Notes under the pieces: model-generated
What the model was told of the DNA's origin: nothing
The model's database searches: none
Seen by the model: only the letters and a program-made list of their open reading frames with translations
Translations under genes and position numbers: made by a program
Origin: a virus
Taxonomy: Duplodnaviria; Caudoviricetes
Direction: 5' to 3' (one strand)
Virus record (IMG/VR): IMGVR_UViG_2904196114_000002
DNA length: 64,000 bases
Part shown: positions 1,592 to 54,271 of the stretch, one piece after another
How positions within the stretch are numbered: the stretch's first letter is position 1
How the letters are laid out: each line of letters starts with the position of its first letter

Positions 1592-4500
1592 TTAAAGCGT
1601 AGTCTCATCTATAGAAAATATCATAGATGGTCTTTTTATTGCAGTCCAATTATCACCTTTTTCAACTATGATTTTAGGCTCTGCTTGTGTCATTCCTTTT
1701 TCTTCCAACTCATAAATTTCTTGATATCCTGTATCAACTTTTTTCATTTCTAATAAATTCATATCTTTATGCATACCTGTGTTATTTGTTTTAACTTGAA
1801 CCTTTAGTTGATTTATAAGTTGATAAATTATATCTCCTACGCTTATATTATCTTCTAATGCTCTATCTAATGTTATTACAAGCTTACCATCTGCACTATT
1901 TGTTAAAGAATTTATGTTATACTTTTTATTCTTAATAAATAGATTAGCCCCTTCTGAAATATTTATAGAATTATTCTCTTTATTAATTGTTGCTCCTAGA
2001 TACATATTATCTCCAAATAAAGTATTAGCTTTAAAGTATATATTATTTATACCAAGATTCAATTTTTCAAGCGGAATAGTGAACAGCACAAAATTATTGA
2101 TAAATTCATTCTTTGAATGTATTAATTCATTGTTTAAATACATTTCAATTTTATCAATTTCATTATTTGAATCATTAACTTTTAATTTTATACCAGCTAT
2201 AGTTTTTTCAGCTAATTCTATAGATGGTTTTGTTGTAGGTACTTGGTAATTCATAAATAAAGTTTCATCTCTTCCAGCATCTAAATAAACTAAATCATTA
2301 TTAAATTCTTCTGGTATTTGAACTTTATTAAATATATATGGATTATTAGATTTCATATTATAACAATCTCTTATTTTGCCACATATCCATAAAGATTTAT
2401 CTAACTTTCTAAAAGATATATAATCTCCACCTATCTCTACATCTTCTACATCTACATCTAGTTTAGTAAATGTTTTTATTATAGTATTTGCAGAAGCTTC
2501 ACCTAATCCAAAATTACTAAATCTATTCAATCCTTGACCCCATACAGAATTATCATTTAATAATACTAAAGTAAACTTATCATCACACATTACTTTCTTT
2601 ACATTAGATATATTTACTCTTTGTAATCCATTTACCTCATTATTATGACCTAGCCCTAGTTGGTATTCTGAATTTAATCCTGTTGAATACAAAGTACCAT
2701 CATTTTTCAGAAAATATGAGAATCCAACGCCACATGAAGCTTGTCTTATATCTGCAAAATTTAGTTTAGTAAAGCTTGTCAACGAAGTTGTTGTTCTTGG
2801 ATTTAATAATTGACCATATATATTCTCTCCACATCCAAATAACTCTCCACTTGTATTTACAATCAATGAATGAGTCTTTGACATCCAAAATTCTTTTATG
2901 TTATCTTGTAATTCTATTCTATCATTATCTATATCATAATTTTCTTTATATACAGAGCCTAAAACGCTTTTATAATTTATATCACTTCGTGATGGTATTA
3001 TATATTTGTTATTTATCAGATTAAAATTATTGTTTAATATATAATTATTCAAAGTGTCAAATCTATAAAGGTAATGTCCTTCTATTTTAGTAATTTCATT
3101 TACAGAACCATCACTTACTCCTAAACCAAGTTGCCCATAACCATTATATCCTACACTGAAAATAGCACCATCATTTTTAATTACAAAAGTAACAGAATCG
3201 CTACAAGCAATTTCTTTTATATTATCTATATCAACTTTTGTAAATGTAGTTCTCTGTGTATTATCACCTAAACAAAGTTGACTATAAGAATTATTTCCTG
3301 TACTCCAAATACTCCCATCTTCTTTTAATATAAATGTATGATTACTAGCACATATGACTTCTTTAACATTATCTATATTAACTTTAGTAAATACATTTCT
3401 ATTAGTAGTATCACCTAAACCTAATTGACCACTATAGTTAAATCCACATGAATATAAAGTTCCATCATTCTTGATTATAAAGGTGTATGCCTGTCCACAA
3501 GCAATCTTTTTAACATTATCAATATCAACCTTTGTAAATATATTTCTTTGTGCAATATCACCTAAGCCTAACTCTCCATAACTATTATTTCCTGTACTCC
3601 AAATACTCCCATCTTCTTTTTGTATAAATGTTTGATTATTTCCACATATAATTTCTTTTACATTATCAATATCAACTTTAGTAAACACATTTCTATTAGT
3701 AGTATCGCCCAAACCTAATTGACCATTAGAATTAAGACCTGTACTCCACACAGTATTGTCATTTTTTAATATAACTGTTTGGTTCCAGCCACATATAACT
3801 TTTTTCACATTATCAATATCAACTTTAGTAAACACATTTCTATTAGTAGTATCACCTAAACCTAATTGACCATTAGAATTATTACCACTATTCCATACAG
3901 TCCCATCATTTTTCAATACAACCACATGCATTTTCCCACATACAACATCTTTTATATTTTCCACATTCATTCTAGTAAATACTCTTTTGCCAGCAGTATC
4001 ACCTAAACCTAATTGACCATAGGAACTACTACCACTACCCCATAAAGTATTGTCATTCTTTAATATGAAAGAAGTATCTCCTAATACGATTTTATAATTG
4101 TTTGCATATTCTGTGAAATTATTTTTTAGTTCTATATTAACTTTAGTAAATACATTTCTATTAGTAGTATCACCTAAACCTAATTGACCACTAGTATTCA
4201 TCCCACATGAGTATAAAGTTCCATCATTTTTTAGTAGAAATGTAGAATCACCACTAGATATTCCATTTTTAATATTTTCAATATTAATCTTAGTAAATAT
4301 TAACTTATCAAAATTATCACCTAAACCCAACTGTCCATAATTATTTAGACCACATGCCCATACTGTATTATCATTTTTAATTATAAATGTGTGATACATA
4401 CCACATATAATTTCTTTTACATTATCAATACCAACCTTAGTGAATACATTTCTTTGTGTAGTATCACCTAATCCTAATTGTCCTTTGCTGTTTTCACCTA

Positions 4501-15932: not shown

Positions 15933-18900
15933 TTATGATTTAATATTTTCTACTATTTTTCTATATACTCTATTTTCTAAATCTCTACCAAACTTCTCTA
16001 AATCTTTCATAGTATCCTTAGTTACATTTCCTTGAACAACAAAGAATGGTGAATTAAAGTTGACTGATGATGTTGAGGATACACTTCTTGAACGAGAATT
16101 TGAAGAAGGATTATAATTAGGCATAGCAAATTTACTTAAATCTAATTCATCTAATATGTCGTTAATATCTTCTAATGTCTCTTTACCTTCTTTTAGCTTA
16201 TCGAGCCATTCCTGCTTAGTGACAGAACCCATTGCCAACATACCATTTTCATATTTATTTATGTATTCAATAATAGCATCTTGAAGTTTCTTAACTTCTC
16301 CATCAAGACCTACAAACTTACCGCTTGAAATTGCTTCATTAATTAAATCAACTAAATTTTCATCTGAGTATTTTTTCTCTAACTCTTCTTTTAATTTATC
16401 TGCTTCTTCTTGTAGTCTGTCAGACTCCTTATCATACATATCATTGACTTGGTCGTCCACATGGTCTTGTACTAAATCCTGTAATTTCTTCTGTTCTTCT
16501 TTTAATTGTTTTTGTAAATCTTTAAGTTTCTTCTGACCACTTAAAGAACTATCTCTTTCAGCTATTGCTATTTGTTTCTCTAAATCACTTATTACATCTT
16601 GTTGTTCTTCATAATCATCTTTATATTTGGCTTCTTTTCTTGAATCATTGTAAGCATCTTGTTGCTTTTTAAGAGAATCAATTTTAGCTTTAGTTTCTTT
16701 ATCTATTTCTTTAAGTCTCTCTTCAAGCTCTTTTTTATACATGTCTCTAATTTTTTCTTGTAGGCTTTGAGCTTCTTTAAGCTGGTCTTTATAAGCATCT
16801 TGAATCTCTTTATTTAAATCTTCTATTTCTTCTTTATTTTGTTGAATTTGTTTATTAGCATCAGGTAAATCTTTAAGAAGTAAATCTAAATATTTCTTAG
16901 CATTTTCTGCTATTTCTTTGTATTTATCTGCATCTTTATTATTTTTTAGAAACGCTAATTGTTGCTCATAATTTGTTATGCTTTTACCATCAGCAGAAAA
17001 TTCAAATCCTTCTTTTGATAACCCTTCTCTTAACTCTTTTGCAGTATCTTCATAGACTTTAATAACATCTTTAATTTCCTTAGCTTGTTTGGCCAATAAC
17101 TCTTTCTTCTTTTCAATTAAGTCTAACTTTTCATCACCTTCAGCATTTTTCATAAGAATGTCTATTAAGTCTATTTCGTTTTGTATTTCAGTAACATGTT
17201 TTTGAGCTGAAGTTAAAGCAGCTTCCCTAGCAATCTCTTTTAATTCTTTTTTAAATTCCTCTGCTGCTCTAGTTGATTCTATAAGAGAATTTGTTACTTC
17301 TTGTTGAGCATCTGCAACTTTCGGTATCTCAGTAAAAGCAATCTTTAAATATTCTTCAACAACCTTTTTTTCTTCTTCTATTTTCTTCTTACGTTCTTCA
17401 CTCTTTTTACTACCTTTGTCGCTCTCTGATTGCTTATCTAATTTCTCTAATTCTTTTTCTAATGATATTAATTTTTCTTCATAACTAGTTAAGTTATCAT
17501 CATCTGAAAAAGTGTACTTATAATCTTTTTTAAGTCTATCTTTTAGTCTATTCTTTTGAGTATTAAGTGCCTTATCTTTTTGGTCTAACAATGTTAGTTC
17601 TTCTTTATATAAAGCGTTTTGTTCTTCAAGATATTTAAGTTTATCTTTTCCACTTGCATATTTCATTTTCTTATCTAAAAGAGATATTCTATCTGCAACT
17701 TTAGATATCGCATTTTCTAATTCTTTTAGTAACTCAATGCTATATTTTACTGCTGCATCAATAGATTTTGTATCTAATGCTATTTTAGGAGTTTTAGTTA
17801 TACGAGAGAATTTCTCCGTAAGAGTTTTGACTGGAGATGTGGCTCTTGATGCTGCTCTTGAGAATAGAGATGGTTTTGTTACAGGAGTTTCGTCACTTAT
17901 TGGTGCTGGTTCTGACGTTCTAGGTTGGGCTGATAGATTAGCTGGAATTGCTTGTGGAGTTTCTATAGAATTTATGGATTGCACACTTTTTCTATTACTC
18001 TTTAATCCACCTAATATATTATTTGCAAATTGAGAAGCAATTCCTCCTAGAGTCCCTACTGTACGAAGATGTGCTGTTATTGTAAAACTCTTATCACTTA
18101 GTTTTTTATTTTCAGTTTGACGAATTGTTTCTAAAGCAGCAGAATTATTCGCTTTAAGTTTAGCCCACTTGTCTTTTATTGTTTTTTTATCAACACTATC
18201 TATGCCCTCAATAGCTCCTTCAATAGCTGCAATTACCTCAACTTGTTTTTCAGGAGGTAATTTTTCTATTTCAGCAATTAATGAATTAATATCTCCATTA
18301 GTTAGTGATTTTATTATATTTATTTTTACGTCTTTGTCTAGGTCTAAAGCATTTAAATTCTCAACTTCATCTAATGCATCTGGATTATTTACTATAAGAT
18401 TAGCTATAATGTCTTTGCTTTCAGGGAAATCATTATAAAGTTGTTCTATTAAATATAACTTATCTTCATTATTTAACATAAAATTAAGAACTTGATTTTT
18501 TTGTTCATCTGGTGTTGATTCATATAGTTTTGTAGCTCTCTCAAGTTCATCTGCATTTTCTACAGCAAAGCTAACAACCTTACTTTTTGTTTCTTCTGGA
18601 ACATTATCATATAGTTTTTGAAATGCTTCAGCCTTTTCTGGATTTTTAATTATAACTTCAGCAAATACTTTTTTATCTTTTTTGTCTTCTAATCCATCAT
18701 ATATAGATTTCATTTTATCAAAATCATCTAAACCATTTAAATTTATGCTATAATCCATAGCTATAGTTGGATTATCCATAAGCCATTTTTGTACGGCTTC
18801 ATAATCCTTTAGATTTTTCAAACTATCAACATTATCAGTTATAAATTTATTAGTAAAAGTTGAATTTGTTGGAAGATTTTTTACTATATCAGCAAAAATT

Positions 18901-21900
18901 TTAACTTGTTCAGTCTCAATACCTGATGATTCTAATTTTAATTTTACATCATTTCTTCCTTCAAGTTGTTTAAATGAATTTAAAGTATTTCTAAGCTCTT
19001 CATTTTTCTTTAACTTAAGTTCAATTTGTTTTGTTGGAGGTGTATTTAATATATCATCTACAAGCTTTTCTGCTTCTTTATCCCTTGAAAATGCAACACT
19101 TTTAGGATTCGGTTTGTCTTTTAAAACCTTTTTAGTAGATTCTTTAGCTTCTTTAACAGGGTCTTTCTTATTTTTATCACCATTTATTTCTTTTAATTTT
19201 TTTTGAATCCATTCAATAGCATCTGATGCTAAGTCTTTAACCTCTATAGTAAAAATTTTATTTGCTATTTCAGAAGAACTAATAGTCTCAATATCATCTT
19301 TAGCTTTTTCTATTTCGGCAATTATTTCTACTCGTTTATCTGGTGGTAAACTTTCAATAGCTTTGCCTAAAGCATCTATATCTCCATCAGATAAGGCTTT
19401 GTATATATTTATTCTTACATCCTTATCTAAAGGAATTTTATCCAATGATGTTATTAAATCCTGAACCCCTAATTTACCATCATTTTGCTTCAAATATATT
19501 TCTGTAATTTTCTCATCAGGTATATGTTCTAAGGCATCTTTTAAATTAACAGAATTATACAAAGCCTCTCCCGCTTCTGCTATAAAATATGTTTTAAGTT
19601 CCGCAGGTACTTTCTTATATATCTCTGATACTTCAACAGCTTTTTCTAGTCCAACTCCATCAGCTTCTAATTTAGTTTTGAGTTCAGAAGGTACTTCGGC
19701 ATACTTAGATGTTAAATCTAATATTTTTCTACCGCCTTCGTCTGCTCCTTCTTCTTTTATGATAGTTTTTACTTCTTTTGGAAATTTATCATAAATTCTT
19801 TTTACTGAATCAGCTTCTTCTAATGTTGCAGTTGGATTAGCTTTTATGACTGTGATTACTTCTTCTGGAAGCTCTTCATATCTTTGCTTTAAGTTACTTA
19901 TTATTTGTTCTGCATTAGCTTGACCTGAATCATCACTCAAAAGTATTTCTGGAGTTATAGTAAATTTACCTTTACCAAATTTACTGTCTAAATCATTTTG
20001 AAGTTTATTTATATCTGGGTCGCCAGTCTGTAACTCCATTAACACATCCATAGTGAATTTCAATACATCAGTAGTACTTGCTCCTGTCCCTAATAGAGCA
20101 TCTATCATGCCCTTGACTTGACTAGGAACTTCCTTAGTATTCTTAATATCAGTTAATATATTTGCGTCAACTTTTACATCTCCAGTTATTGTAGTTGTAT
20201 CTAATATATTCTGAATACTATCAAATTGATTTTGGAGTTGCATTGCAAGTTTATCACCATTTGCTAAATCTAGTTTTGTTTTACCAAACTTAGCTAATAA
20301 TGTATTTATAGATGTCATATCTTTAATTCCATTTGGATTTACTTGCCCAAATAAATTTTCCCATATATTAGCATCTGTGTTAGTTGCTTTAGCTATACTC
20401 TTAGCTGTTTTATCTATTGTTTGATTATATTTTTCTATATCTTGTGTTCTAGCAAATTCTTCATTTGCATCCTTAAGAGTTTTAGATAAATCTCCTACAT
20501 CAACTTTCCCACTTCTAACAGCAGTAAGCAATTTGTTGACTGCCTGTTCTGTGTCTACTAGAGTATCTGGTGTAACTTCACTAAAATCAAATAAACTTTC
20601 AAGTCCAGCAAAACTAGACTTATCATTGCCTTCTAATCCACTATAAAGAGTTTTATTCTTAATGTTAGAAAATATTCCATCTCCTATTTCTTTTGAATAC
20701 CCTTGAATTTTATCTACTTGATTTCTATACATTTCATCATATTTGAAATATATTTTTTCTTCTTCTGCTTTAGCTGACATTAATTCATTTCTGGCTTTAT
20801 CTCTTGCTCTACCAGTTGAATTATTATATTTCTCGATTGCTTTTTCTTGTCTTTTTTTATTCTTTTCAACTTCTGCTGTATAATCTTCTTCTATTTTTAC
20901 AAGCTTACCAGTTTCGCTTTCTCTCATTCTTTCTTCTAAAGTTTTATTTACATCTTTACTTGGAGAATTTAATTTTTTAGCAGCAGTTTTCGCATTATCA
21001 TGTTTATCATAGGACATCAATCTTTCTTTTGCATTAATAGCTCTATCTATTTCAGCAATTAAATCAGTAACCTGACCTTTTAAAATAGGTATACCATTTT
21101 CATCTGTTCCTATAACTGCATCTGGTTTTATTTTTGCAATCTGTTGTTTTAGTTCATTTAATCTATTATTATCTTCTTTAGACTTATTTTCTTTTTTAGA
21201 TAAATTATCATATTCTTCTGCAAGTGCTTGTAATTGAACTTTTTGGCTTTCATATGAATTAATTTGTTGTTTTGAAGCTTGAATATTTTTCTTTCTAGCT
21301 TGATAAGCATTTTCTTCTCTATTTGCATAATTCTCCATAGCTTGTGCTAATAGACTTACACCTGCAAATGCAGCAGTTAAAACTAAAGAATTTCCAACTG
21401 TAGTTGCTATACCTTTACCAAAATTTACAATGCTACTCCCTGCAAATGCCTTACCAATATTACCAAGCCCATCACTTATTGTATCTTTTCTACTTTTAGA
21501 AACAACTTTTAATTTTTGATTATATTTTTCATATGACTTTGTTCTGTCTTCATTTATTTTTATTTCTTTAGCTGTTGCCTTTTTTAAACTGTTGGTTGTT
21601 GATGTATATTTTCCTACAATGCCATTTTGACTATTTATAGTTCTATTAACAACTTGATTTGATTTAGCATTGTTTTTTGAAGCATTAGTATTTTTATTTA
21701 TAGCACTTGTATATTGATTAGTAAATTTTGTAGCTCTTTCAAAGTCTTTAAATTTAACAGATTTTCTATTGTTTTGAAAGGCACTAAATATACTTCCTCC
21801 TAAATTCGTGATTGGTTTACCAGTACCTAATGCTTTAATTGTCATAAATAAAGACGATAAACCTGCTAGGGCTACAGGAAGCGAAACATGCATTTTGTCA

Positions 21901-24329
21901 GCCGCTTTAGTTATACCATTTAAAATTCCTGTAATACCAGATAATCCATCTAAACTAGTCTTAAACATATCTGTAGATATAGTATCTGTAACTAATTGTT
22001 TAAGACTTTCTTTTAATTTTATAATCTTACCTTCTGCTGAATTTATGAATCTCTCATTCTCTTTACTGGCACTACCTAGCACTTCTCCACCCAGCCATGC
22101 ACTTTGGAATTTTTTTACCTGGTTCCAATTATCCATGACAGCCATGAAAGTATTTATGTGGTTTTTACCTGAACAAAATCTTCAATTAAGTTCGCTATAC
22201 TTAACTCGTTCTCTTATGAACTGCTATATGTTTCCATATAGATGAGACTATATCTTCATCCTATAAGGATGCTCCCCATTTCCACTATCAATAGCTTATA
22301 GTGTACGGTTTATAACCTAGTCGTTGAACCTTACTCTCATTGAGTTTTGGCTGCTGATTGTCCCTATCTTTTAGTTTTTCACACTTTGGTACTAAAAGCC
22401 TAACGGGAGTTTCCAGCAATTAAAGGAGTTTATCATTATATATTACTATATAAGGCGACTAAAATTAATCGCTTCGGCAATACCACTTTTTTGATTTTTA
22501 GTTAAGGCATCTTCGCCAACACTATGCCACTTTTCTGCCAACTCATCTAAAATTGACATCATATCTCTTACTTGGCCAGTTTGCTTATCTAACACATTTA
22601 TTTTTGCTGTTTCTTGTAAAGTTTTTGCTGTTTTATTGAGGCTGATTTTTCCTGAATCTGCTGAAGCTTTGATACCACTCATGTTTATACCAATTGTTTT
22701 GAGTGCTGTACCTACTTTTTCAGCATTTTGTACAGATTCATTTCCTCCAACTATCAAAGCAACAGAGTCTTCCATTGAAACGCCTGCTGATGATAACATA
22801 CTTGCACTTCTTTGTAATGCAGCTCCTACATCGCCAGTTGTTATTGCAAAATTATTACCTGCATAGTTCGATAAATCAAGAAATTTTGTAAGATTATCAT
22901 AATCTTTACTCATTCCTTTGATTTGAACTCTAGTATCTTTAATTGGTTTTAATGCTTTTGTCATTCCACCATAAGCGGACATAACACTAGTTAAGTACTT
23001 ATCAGCAGTTTCTTGGTCTAAATCACCAACATTTGCAAAAACTGCTGATTGTTTAGCTATCTTCAAACTGTCTGATACCGATTTTACACCAGTTTGTAGA
23101 GCTTTAGATGCCCCCTGAATTATATCCTCTGATGCTCTAGCTGTATCTTTCCCTATTGATATTGCTTCATTTTTTACATTCTTTAATTGCTCACTTGTAC
23201 CTTCAAAATTATCAGGTGCTACTTTCATCATATCTCTTAAAGCACTATCTAATTCAACGATAGTTGTTTTAATATTTCTTACACCATTTGTAATAGACAT
23301 ACCTATCATATTACCTAAAGTATAAGTTCTCATCGAATTATATAGGTCACTAAAAAATCCATTTGTTGCTTTTACACTAGTTCCTAATCCTGTGAAATTA
23401 GATTTCATATTGCTTAATCTGCTTTTTATTGAATCTAATTCCTTTACTTTTTGACCTAGAGGCATACCATTTAATTGCATTAATTCTTTTTCTAGTTTAT
23501 CAATTCCAGCAGTTGATTGACCCAATTCTAAACATTTTTGTCTAAGCCTATTTAAATCTGAAATTACTTTGGAAAGATTCATATTGAACTTAGCATCTAA
23601 TTTAGTATTTTTAGTAGCATTTTCTACTTCTTTAACTTTATTTTTTAATTGTTCTAGTTTTTGTATTTCTGATTGTATTTGATTAGAAGTTAGATTTTTA
23701 AGATTCAAATTTTGAATTGACTTTAATGAATTTGATAAAGCTTGTAGTTTAGATGTATCTGCATATCCAGACTTACCCAATGTTTCTATTTTATTAGCTA
23801 ATTTTCCAGCTTCATTTTGAAGAGTTTTAAATTGAGAAGCCATTTTTGTATTCATATCTGGTATTTTCATATTAGCCAACTTAGACTGAACATTTGATAA
23901 ATCTGATAGAGCCTTTGAATTTAGACCACCTAATTTAATATTAGATAATCTTTTCAATTCTCCTGATAATTTGTTAATTTCTCCTATTTGCTTATTGTCT
24001 AAAATATTTGTCTGAGTAAATTTCTTTAATTGTCTTTGAGTAGACTCTATTTTTTTCCTAAAGTTATCGTATTGAGAAGTTAATTTATTTATATTCCCAT
24101 TTGAATTACCTTTTCCACCAAATAATCCATTTTGGGTTTCTCTACTAAGTTTATTAATTTGTTTTAATGTGTTCTCTAATTGCTTTAAATTATTTAATGA
24201 GGATGCATTCATCTCCACATTTAACTTTATATTATTTTCTTTTGCAGATGTCTTCAGTGATGCTAATTGTTTCCTAGCTTTTTTATCATCAAGCTCTATA
24301 CTGGTCTTAATCTTAAATTCTTCTGCCAT
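15933..24329 (-). CDS. Tail tape measure protein, spliced: join(22468..24329, 15933..22173), ~2700 aa
   Basis: TP901-type TMP core (ELDSALRDMMKV...GNNFAITTGDVGAAL...GNESVQNAEKVGTALKTI) in exon 1; both ORF-track pieces are in the same frame; removing the intron gives ...GIAEAI-SGKNHINTFMAVMDNW. Confidence 0.88.
22174..22467 (-). ncRNA. Group I intron (IA-like, ORF-less, 294 nt)
   Basis: P AAUUGCUGGAAAC, Q AAUCAGCAGCC, R GUUCAACGACUA and S GAAGAUAUAGUCU appear in order; P1 pairs exon GCGAU with IGS GUCGC, giving a U-G wobble at the 5' splice site; terminal G at 22174. Confidence 0.92.
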
Positions 24330-25157: not shown

Positions 25158-26318
25158 TTACAATTCGACATTATTTTCTTTTAATTTTTTCTTTAATACT
25201 ATAGTAGTTATTGGTTCATCATAATTCCAATAAATTAATTTAACATTATTTTCATCACATAGCCTTTTCTTTTTTTTATCTCTTAATTTATTTTTTTCAA
25301 GAGTTTCTTCCCCTCCAAAAAAATCTACACTCTTAAAATGTTGTTGTCCTTGATACTCAAAAGCCAAATTAATAGAGGGAACAAATACATCTAAAGTTTG
25401 ACCATTTAACCACTCAGGTCTATATTGATGTGTTGCATCTTTAAACTTTTTACAAATTACTTTAAACATATTAATCTCACTTTTCCATTTATAAGCCATT
25501 TCATCATTTAAAATCATTTTTTTCTGGATAAGCGCTTTTTCTTCTAAATAATTTATTTTTTCTAATGATGATGTATCAATTTTCTCATACTTATTTTGCA
25601 TTGGAGTCATTATTTTCCCTCTTAAAAAATACACTAGTTCAAATTCATTATCAAAATACCCTTTTTCCATTATTTTGTTTATTACATTTCTAGCATGAAG
25701 TATTTCTATTGGGTCATTATCAGACCTAGAAATATCTCCTAAAAAATGTGTTAAATTATTTGGTTTTGGATAACAAACCTTTTTACCCTCAAACAAACAT
25801 AGATTTTCTATAAATTTTATATCTGTATCATAAATTTTATAACCTGAAAACCCATGTTGCATATAGCTAGAAATAAGTTTCAACATTAATGCTATTTCTT
25901 TTTTTTGTTCTTTTTTAAACACAACTTTGTGATTTACACTTTTGTCATCTTCAAATATATTAGGAAGTATTATATGTTTATAAGCACTATTGGCTAACTC
26001 ACAAGCTATATAATATTTTTCTTTAGAGCAACTGCTAAAAAACATTGTATATGTATCTTTTTCTTTATATTCATCTCTTATTTCTTCTGATATGCTATCA
26101 AATAAATTGTTTATTTCCTTAAATCCATCCCTATATTTTAACTTATCCAAATCTCTTCCAGTTTTCATCATACATGAGATTTCTTCGTCCCAAGTTGTTA
26201 ACAACAAATATTCTAAATCTCTATTAATAAATTCTTGTTTTATTTCTTCAAGCTTTTTGAAATATAATTTACTTTTTTTCCCACATCTATTATCTTTAAT
26301 ATATTCACTTATTAACAT
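25158..26318 (-). CDS. Protein with C-terminal Vsr/DUF559-like PD-(D/E)XK endonuclease domain (start revised from 26414)
   Basis: QTLDVFVPSINLAFEYQGQQHF...RDKKKKRLC...KLIYW motif; RBS AAGGAG before ATG at 26318. Confidence 0.65.
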   Translation of the reverse strand: MLISEYIKDNRCGKKSKLYFKKLEEIKQEFINRDLEYLLLTTWDEEISCMMKTGRDLDKLKYRDGFKEINNLFDSISEEIRDEYKEKDTYTMFFSSCSKEKYYIACELANSAYKHIILPNIFEDDKSVNHKVVFKKEQKKEIALMLKLISSYMQHGFSGYKIYDTDIKFIENLCLFEGKKVCYPKPNNLTHFLGDISRSDNDPIEILHARNVINKIMEKGYFDNEFELVYFLRGKIMTPMQNKYEKIDTSSLEKINYLEEKALIQKKMILNDEMAYKWKSEINMFKVICKKFKDATHQYRPEWLNGQTLDVFVPSINLAFEYQGQQHFKSVDFFGGEETLEKNKLRDKKKKRLCDENNVKLIYWNYDEPITTIVLKKKLKENNVEL

Positions 26319-26418
26319 AACATTATCTCCTTTATTCTGATACATTAATTGTATCAATTCTAAAGGAAAATTTATACTACAAAAGGAAATAGAAGCCAAA
26401 ACTCCTATTTCCACAAAA

Positions 26419-54099: not shown

Positions 54100-54189
54100 T
54101 GGAAGAGAGGAAGGGATTTGAACCCTCGTATCAATTAATTGACCTAATAGTTTAGCAAACTATCCTCTTTACCACTTGAGTACCTCTCC
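54100..54189 (-). tRNA. tRNA-Ser (GCT)
   Basis: GGAGAGG acceptor, ATAGT-TTGCTAA-ACTAT anticodon arm, long variable arm, GGTTCAAATCC T arm, encoded CCA. Confidence 0.9.
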
Positions 54190-54194
54190 ATATT

Positions 54195-54271
54195 TGGTAG
54201 GAATAATAGGAGTCGAACCTATGACCTTTCGGGTATGAACCGAACGCTCTAGCCACCTGAGCTATATCCCT
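54195..54271 (-). tRNA. tRNA-Met (CAT), elongator-like
   Basis: AGGGATATAGCTCAGGTGGCTAGAGCG TTCGG-TTCATAC-CCGAA AGGTC ATAGG-TTCGACT-CCTAT TATTCCT ACCA. Confidence 0.9.

Follow-up and report, generated by a model that had tools for sequence, protein, structure and literature searches.

Group I introns of subgroup IA2 are familiar from the td and nrdB genes of phage T4 and from Staphylococcus phage Twort. They combine the P7.1 and P7.2 hairpins and the R/S consensus with an AT-rich phage context, as does the intron described here; unlike it, most of them carry, or once carried, homing endonuclease ORFs and are found in nucleotide-metabolism genes. Introns in terminase genes are known in LL-H and Moonbeam. 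In prophages of the Bacillus cereus group, Tourasse & Kolsto (2008) described IA1 and IA2 introns at three positions in tape-measure genes (PMC2504315), and in the Cluster J mycobacteriophages introns are found in capsid and tail genes, the two tail-gene copies being identical to each other (PMC3706429). The first-pass annotation of the present locus, made from the letters and a list of their open reading frames, regarded introns in virion structural genes as uncommon, which understates the record, since tape-measure genes are a documented target (PMC2504315; PMC3706429).

The DNA analysed is a stretch of 64,000 nucleotides from IMG/VR record IMGVR_UViG_2904196114_000002, hereafter the window. 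It is a member of the phiCD211/phiCD5763-like plasmid-phages of Clostridioides difficile, which are ~130 kb in length and have been described as "big plasmidial" siphophages (PMC5786514); the phage records akin to it come from Clostridioides and are ~132 kb in size. The intron, its host gene and all other window features given below lie on the minus strand.

The intron and the gene it interrupts

The intron is an ORF-less group I intron of IA type, 294 nt long, at 22174..22467 (-), identified by a match to the Rfam family RF00028 and by comparison with an intron-less allele. An Rfam search of positions 22050-22600, of the kind proposed in the first-pass annotation, matched RF00028 at 22476..22224 (-) over the full model (positions 1-253 of 253) with 110.1 bits, against a gathering score of 50, and an E-value of 8.6e-30; the same score was obtained in the plasmid record identical to the window. 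The insertion amounts to 98 codons, keeps the frame and contains an in-frame stop 7 codons in. The longest ORF inside it has 43 aa and a TTG start, so the intron is ORF-less and its 294 nt are essentially all ribozyme; no endonuclease ORF was found inside it.

The 5' splice site is fixed by the U.G pair in P1. For the 3' splice site there are three candidate in-frame G residues, 22180, 22174 and 22168. Phage ES-S-0107-01 (L001), which is uninterrupted at the window's site, reads GIAEAAAGKYHINSF, and the window with its 3' end at G22174 reads GIAEAISGKNHINTF, without gaps between the two. The alternatives G22180 (intron of 288 nt) and G22168 (300 nt) were rejected, as they differ by two residues more or fewer from uninterrupted homologs and disagree with the intron-less allele. 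This allele is found in the C. difficile CD161 plasmid NZ_CP029155.1 (L006), whose exons are 96-100% identical in protein to those of the window and in which the last 25 nt of exon 1 abut the first 25 nt of exon 2 in an exact match. The terminal (omega) G at 22174..22174 (-) is thus the only in-frame G that is collinear, free of gaps, with intron-less alleles. The collinearity with ES-S-0107-01 and the junction in the CD161 plasmid place the intron exactly at 22467..22174, which is confirmed as a genuine group I intron bounded to the base, both boundaries and collinearity being directly observed. These are the coordinates and the length at which the first-pass annotation had placed it, and both the junction GCGAT/TTCAGGT and the peptide SGIAEAISGK that it had predicted are encoded, letter for letter, by the intron-less allele; the alignment to intron-less homologs that it had suggested is the one that proved collinear in the two records above.

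The host gene is that of the phage tail tape measure protein. Exon 1 (22468..24329, minus strand) comprises 1,862 nt, that is 620 codons and 2 nt, ending in ...GCC GAA GCG AT, and exon 2 (15933..22173, minus strand) begins with T TCA GGT AAA... and comprises 6,241 nt including the stop; joined, they give 8,103 nt and 2,700 aa with no internal stop. The open reading frames flanking the intron, both on the minus strand, are 22446..24329 (627 aa) and 15933..22145 (2,070 aa). Exon 1 contains Pfam PF10145 (PhageMin_Tail) between aa 387 and 607, with 73.9 bits (cut-off 33.2) and E 2e-20, and exon 2 alone gave no Pfam match. In NZ_CP029155.1 PGAP gives the two pieces one name, "phage tail tape measure protein"; the record of the window-identical plasmid has them as separate RefSeq CDS, the first named tape measure and the second "hypothetical". 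The earlier reading of an in-frame, stop-containing, ORF-less insertion with a group I core, a U-G pair in P1 and a terminal G, which leaves a tape measure gene annotated as two fragments of 627 and 2070 aa in place of one spliced product of ~2700 aa, holds in each of these parts. Its estimate of tail length is also arithmetically correct, 2,700 aa at 0.15 nm per residue giving ~400 nm. No measured tail length was found in the papers examined, among which a review says only that the group has "intriguingly long tails". Recognition of the intron restores one protein of 2,700 aa, which would account for such tails, where the RefSeq and GenBank records of the ~130-kb C. difficile plasmid-phages list between two and four genes, called "hypothetical" or "tape measure" and given as unrelated.

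The anatomy of the ribozyme can be read directly along the intron. P1 (22455..22472, minus strand) is formed by the exon end GCGAU and the intron bases UA with the internal guide UAGUCGC (GCGAUUA/UAGUCGC), and the wobble of U22468, the last exon base, with G22459 marks the 5' splice site; this pair is invariant in five divergent copies and held in 19 of 19 copies at three sites, and the terminal G is likewise conserved in all copies. It is followed by the P2 hairpin (22436..22453, minus strand), with one compensatory change between UA and CG, and by P3 (CUCCUU/GGGGAG; 22272..22428, minus strand), which encloses P4-P5-P5a-P6, the 5' strand of P7 and P7.1/P7.2. The P7 strands are GACUA (22318..22322, minus strand), within the R element GUUCAACGACUA, and its complement UAGUC (22246..22250, minus strand), within the S element AAGAUAUAGUC, and both elements fit the R/S consensus. 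Both strands are invariant among copies, so that covariation gives no signal for or against the P7 pairing, the pseudoknot in which group I introns bind guanosine. Between P7 and the 3' strand of P3 stand P7.1 (GGUU/AACC) and P7.2 (CACUAU...AUAGUG; 22283..22303, minus strand), an insert relative to the Rfam model; both hairpins are typical of subgroup IA, and P7.2 occurs as three different, fully paired helices among five copies, with double changes in 4 pairs. P8 (CAUCCU/AGGAUG) is at 22257..22271 (-) and the P9, P9.1 and P9.2 hairpins at 22184..22241 (-), with compensatory changes in P9 and P9.2. From the visible P7.1 and P7.2 hairpins the intron is assigned to subgroup IA (IA2-like), a type widespread among phages of Firmicutes.

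The consensus fold from P1 to P9.2, obtained with RNAalifold from five copies that are 72-100% identical, has 89 pairs, 15 of them kept through double changes. P3, P4, P5, P6 and P8 were recovered by RNAalifold and by minimum free energy (MFE) folding, and the MFE fold of the window intron alone gives the intron helices with z = -3.4, none of 100 shuffles being equally stable. Inspected by eye, none of the copies offered a convincing P10 pairing with the 3' exon. Judged from these copies, the ribozyme fold is intact and under purifying selection; chance is excluded by the Rfam E-value, the z-score of the fold and the 15 doubly changed pairs taken together.

Copies, sites and further interruptions in relatives

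Two C. difficile plasmids of 127-132 kb carry copies that are 100% identical to the intron, and those in three others are 94-98% identical to it. A search pattern drawn from P2-P3, downstream of the guide, found 12 further loci in IMG/VR, and a pattern scan of genome contigs gave no match. Altogether 19 copies of the lineage were observed among IMG/VR, plasmid and phage records, in homologous tape-measure genes and at three sites, in every case after GCGAT. Site A (ACWGGCGAT, after the residues TTGD) is at codon 500; site A2 (GTTGCCGAAGCGAT, after GVAEA) belongs to a divergent gene lineage; and the window's own site (ATTGCCGAAGCGAT, after GIAEA) is at codon 620/621. The copies share the guide GUCGC, apart from one divergent branch that has GUUGC. 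In one locus (L020) the lineage occupies both site A and the window's site, and in the window itself site A is empty (ACT GGC GAT followed by GTA at codon 500; 22830..22834, minus strand), a position that the lineage occupies in relatives.

The spliced mRNA of the window contains GCGAT three times, against 3.5 expected from base composition, and two of the three are known sites, namely that of the window's intron and the empty site A. The third and last, at 17707-17711 (-), has no intron in relatives within a survey that covered the first ~1,000 codons. Where other lineages have no intron at a homologous site, the pentamer is missing and GCAAT, GAGGCA or GCATT stands in its place, yet the CD161 allele has GCGAT at the window's site and is empty there, as is site A of the window; a matching target is thus necessary but not sufficient.

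The copy at site A2 of L005 (L005:3492-3799) is a mosaic, as seen on alignment with the window and L001. Its exon end, P1 and P2 are of the window type at 10 of 10 informative positions, and its core through P7.2 is of the site-A type at 16 of the next 19 positions, the remaining three agreeing with neither type. Recombination thus takes place between copies at different sites. In L029 the A2 site is empty and still encodes GVAEA with other codons, which indicates that the peptide motif is older than the intron; the view that it arose at A2 by co-conversion was rejected on this ground. Co-conversion is not required for GVAEA; the identity of 13 nt at two sites may reflect it.

The intron is one of several insertions found in these genes, the relatives taken together having at least eight interrupted positions in the stretch of ~200 codons from aa 436 to 640. 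The NYAG family, located after aa 491, is group I by Rfam, with 50.7 bits in the CD161 plasmid; its copy in pCD1602_4 scores 39.7 bits with RF00028 (gathering score 50). Between the NYAG-family intron, which is the upstream one, and the site-A intron lies a micro-exon of 27 nt (NNFAITTGD; L006:3474-3500), also present in L021 and L020, and the two introns that flank it both exceed the Rfam cut-off, with 50.7 and 84.9 bits. Five interruptions were identified in the single tape-measure gene at L020:983-5451 (IMGVR_UViG_2547132209_000008), at aa 436, 491, 500, 621 and ~640. Two further insertion families, of ~285-315 nt, gave no Rfam family match; copies are found at L004:2645-2943, L004:3851-4165, L002:~3096-3379, L002:3629-3916 and L005:~3158-3446. 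Both families occur at several sites each, follow an exon U and end in G; their exon ends, GGU or GCU, are matched by short complementary guides, GCC or GGC. Similarity of 70-75% links them to sequences of the AR9 gyrase A gene (gyrA) and of the tape measure gene of Staphylococcus phage 6ec, and also to crAss-like phage sequences adjoining homing endonuclease genes. From these features they are probably of a group I type that RF00028 models poorly. A blastn search of the window for these other families of the relatives found none of them.

The default Rfam scan of the whole window (64 kb) returned only two tRNAs and missed the 110-bit intron, and a 16-kb scan of L001 and L002 gave no match although L001 holds a copy that is 91% identical. 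The intron was recovered only by the narrow-window search or by the genome-search route. Both misses are failures of the speed filter on AT-rich sequence and not absences, and a blank wide scan of an AT-rich genome is no evidence that introns are absent. Together with the two families to which RF00028 is blind, the miss under default filters suggests that introns in AT-rich phage genomes are probably under-counted. The two tRNA genes are adjacent, at 54103-54271 (-), and score 66.8 and 57.1 bits, the second having a long variable arm.

Splicing and spread

In the late transcript the guide GUCGC would pair with the exon end GCGAU, placing a U.G pair at the cleavage site. An external guanosine would then attack after U22468 and the freed exon end would attack after G22174, joining ...GCGAU to UUCAGG... 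in one frame of 8,103 nt that encodes the tape measure protein of 2,700 aa. Such a guanosine-initiated, two-step transesterification, and self-splicing itself, are what an intact and covarying ribozyme of this kind suggests. An unspliced transcript meets the stop 7 codons into the intron and yields the N-terminal piece of 627 aa only, so that the full-length protein, and hence tail assembly, would require splicing.

The segment 22467..22174 is very probably an intact IA-type intron that is spliced from the tape-measure mRNA, and most likely a selfish passenger, not a regulator. Some close alleles have the lineage and others lack it; with an unchanged guide it is found at three GCGAT sites in homologous genes, and its copies recombine with one another. 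The first-pass annotation had raised the idea of a late-gene checkpoint, that is, of splicing as a regulated step in which a cofactor, or the folding of the intron, controls tape-measure production and thereby the moment at which tails are assembled. In its favour, tail assembly would logically depend on splicing, and a ribosome leaving exon 1 would meet P1 and P2 and stop in P2, a layout in which translation can influence folding, as is established for T4 td. Close alleles vary, however: the CD161 plasmid has no intron at the window's site, others have one to five interruptions at varying sites, and such scattered occurrence is what one expects when a selfish element is gained and lost, and not of a conserved regulatory device. 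With no regulatory element identified for it either, a checkpoint is very unlikely. That the intron is instead a decayed relic which no longer splices, the plasmid-prophage being defective and its tape measure gene either a pseudogene or genuinely in two parts, would agree with the separate CDS that RefSeq lists for the two halves and with the rarity with which plasmid-phages of this group are seen as particles (PMC5786514). It is nevertheless extremely unlikely, since the core helices are intact, those that vary being kept paired by compensatory changes, the U.G pair and the terminal G persist in every copy, the 8.1 kb of exon are free of stops, copies that are 98-100% identical occur in several independent plasmids, and no ribosome-binding site is evident before the ATG of the second fragment.

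As there is no endonuclease in the intron, spread to identical sites probably needs no more than homologous recombination when related phages meet. New sites may be reached under the direction of the guide, by reverse splicing, or through exchange at the DNA level; the constant guide and the shared pentamer fit the former and the mosaic copy supports the latter as well. It is possible, though on the whole doubtful, that this ORF-less lineage, moved among at least three GCGAU sites with an unchanged guide of 5 nt, is a natural record of guide-directed (reverse-splicing) transposition. If so, the transposition took place within a stretch of ~200 codons in which no fewer than four families of intron have accumulated, with as many as five interruptions in a single gene. 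Spread of the ORF-less intron at the DNA level by a nuclease acting in trans, and not by guide-directed reverse splicing, is unlikely; its candidate is a gene of 418 aa at 25158-26414 (-), two genes upstream of the tape measure gene. Among PHROG families, those of HNH, homing and intron-encoded nucleases are matched moderately by the product of this gene (E 2e-12 to 2e-10), but it matches no Pfam family and its best PHROG is of unknown function. Its C-terminus resembles the product of a gene of Bacillus phage BpSp that abuts a related intron. The 418-aa gene is present in three of the three loci showing both gene and occupied window-type site, and is absent from the allele in which this site is intact but empty; however, it is also absent from several genomes that have the intron at other sites, so that it tracks intron occupancy only loosely and in a tiny sample. 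The mosaic in L005 and the 13 identical exon bases at two sites fit exchange at the DNA level, whereas the GVAEA motif at an empty site can be explained without co-conversion. Identification of the 418-aa product as a Vsr-like nuclease was rejected, having no Pfam support. The gene is variably present, and a match of ~30 aa to its N-terminus persists at the same place in several relatives.

Whichever route applies, the allele set, with its empty, single and double forms and up to five interruptions, one guide, three sites and mosaics, is a compact natural system in which one can ask how group I introns that lack an endonuclease reach new sites.

Comparison with known introns

The closest sequence relatives outside Clostridioides are annotated introns of Bacillus phage AR9/PBS1, 84% identical over 74% of the intron. 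The AR9 host gene encodes the beta subunit of the virion RNA polymerase and is annotated as 6 joined pieces, whereas the window's encodes the tape measure protein; both AR9 and the C. difficile group are cases of a gene with several introns in a large phage of Firmicutes. The AR9 copy is adjoined by a gene for an HNH homing endonuclease and the window intron has none.

The Cluster J mycobacteriophages resemble the present group in having group I introns in virion structural genes and in being temperate siphophages with large genomes (PMC3706429). Their splicing was shown experimentally in late expression and their hosts are of high GC, whereas splicing of the window intron is predicted.

The Bacillus introns TMP-IVS1/2/3 share with the window intron the tape measure host gene, the IA class and the occurrence at several positions in one gene; in both groups some copies have no endonuclease gene, some are found on plasmid prophages, related introns occupy different sites and different introns occupy one site (PMC2504315). 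The host genus is different and the tape measure protein is unrelated, with >1,200 aa in Bacillus against 2,700 aa here. As far as the Bacillus introns can be compared by their description, their P1 guides diverged with the site, whereas here one guide (GUCGC/GUUGC) serves three GCGAU sites.

The papers examined on large C. difficile phages mention neither an intron nor a tape measure gene, and the intron is apparently unreported for phiCD211/phiCD5763-like phages. With the precedents of the Bacillus tape-measure genes, Cluster J and the terminase genes, the kind of intron is already established, and the understanding of group I introns is not changed by that of the window. What is new here is the host group, and the presence of one unchanged guide at three sites.
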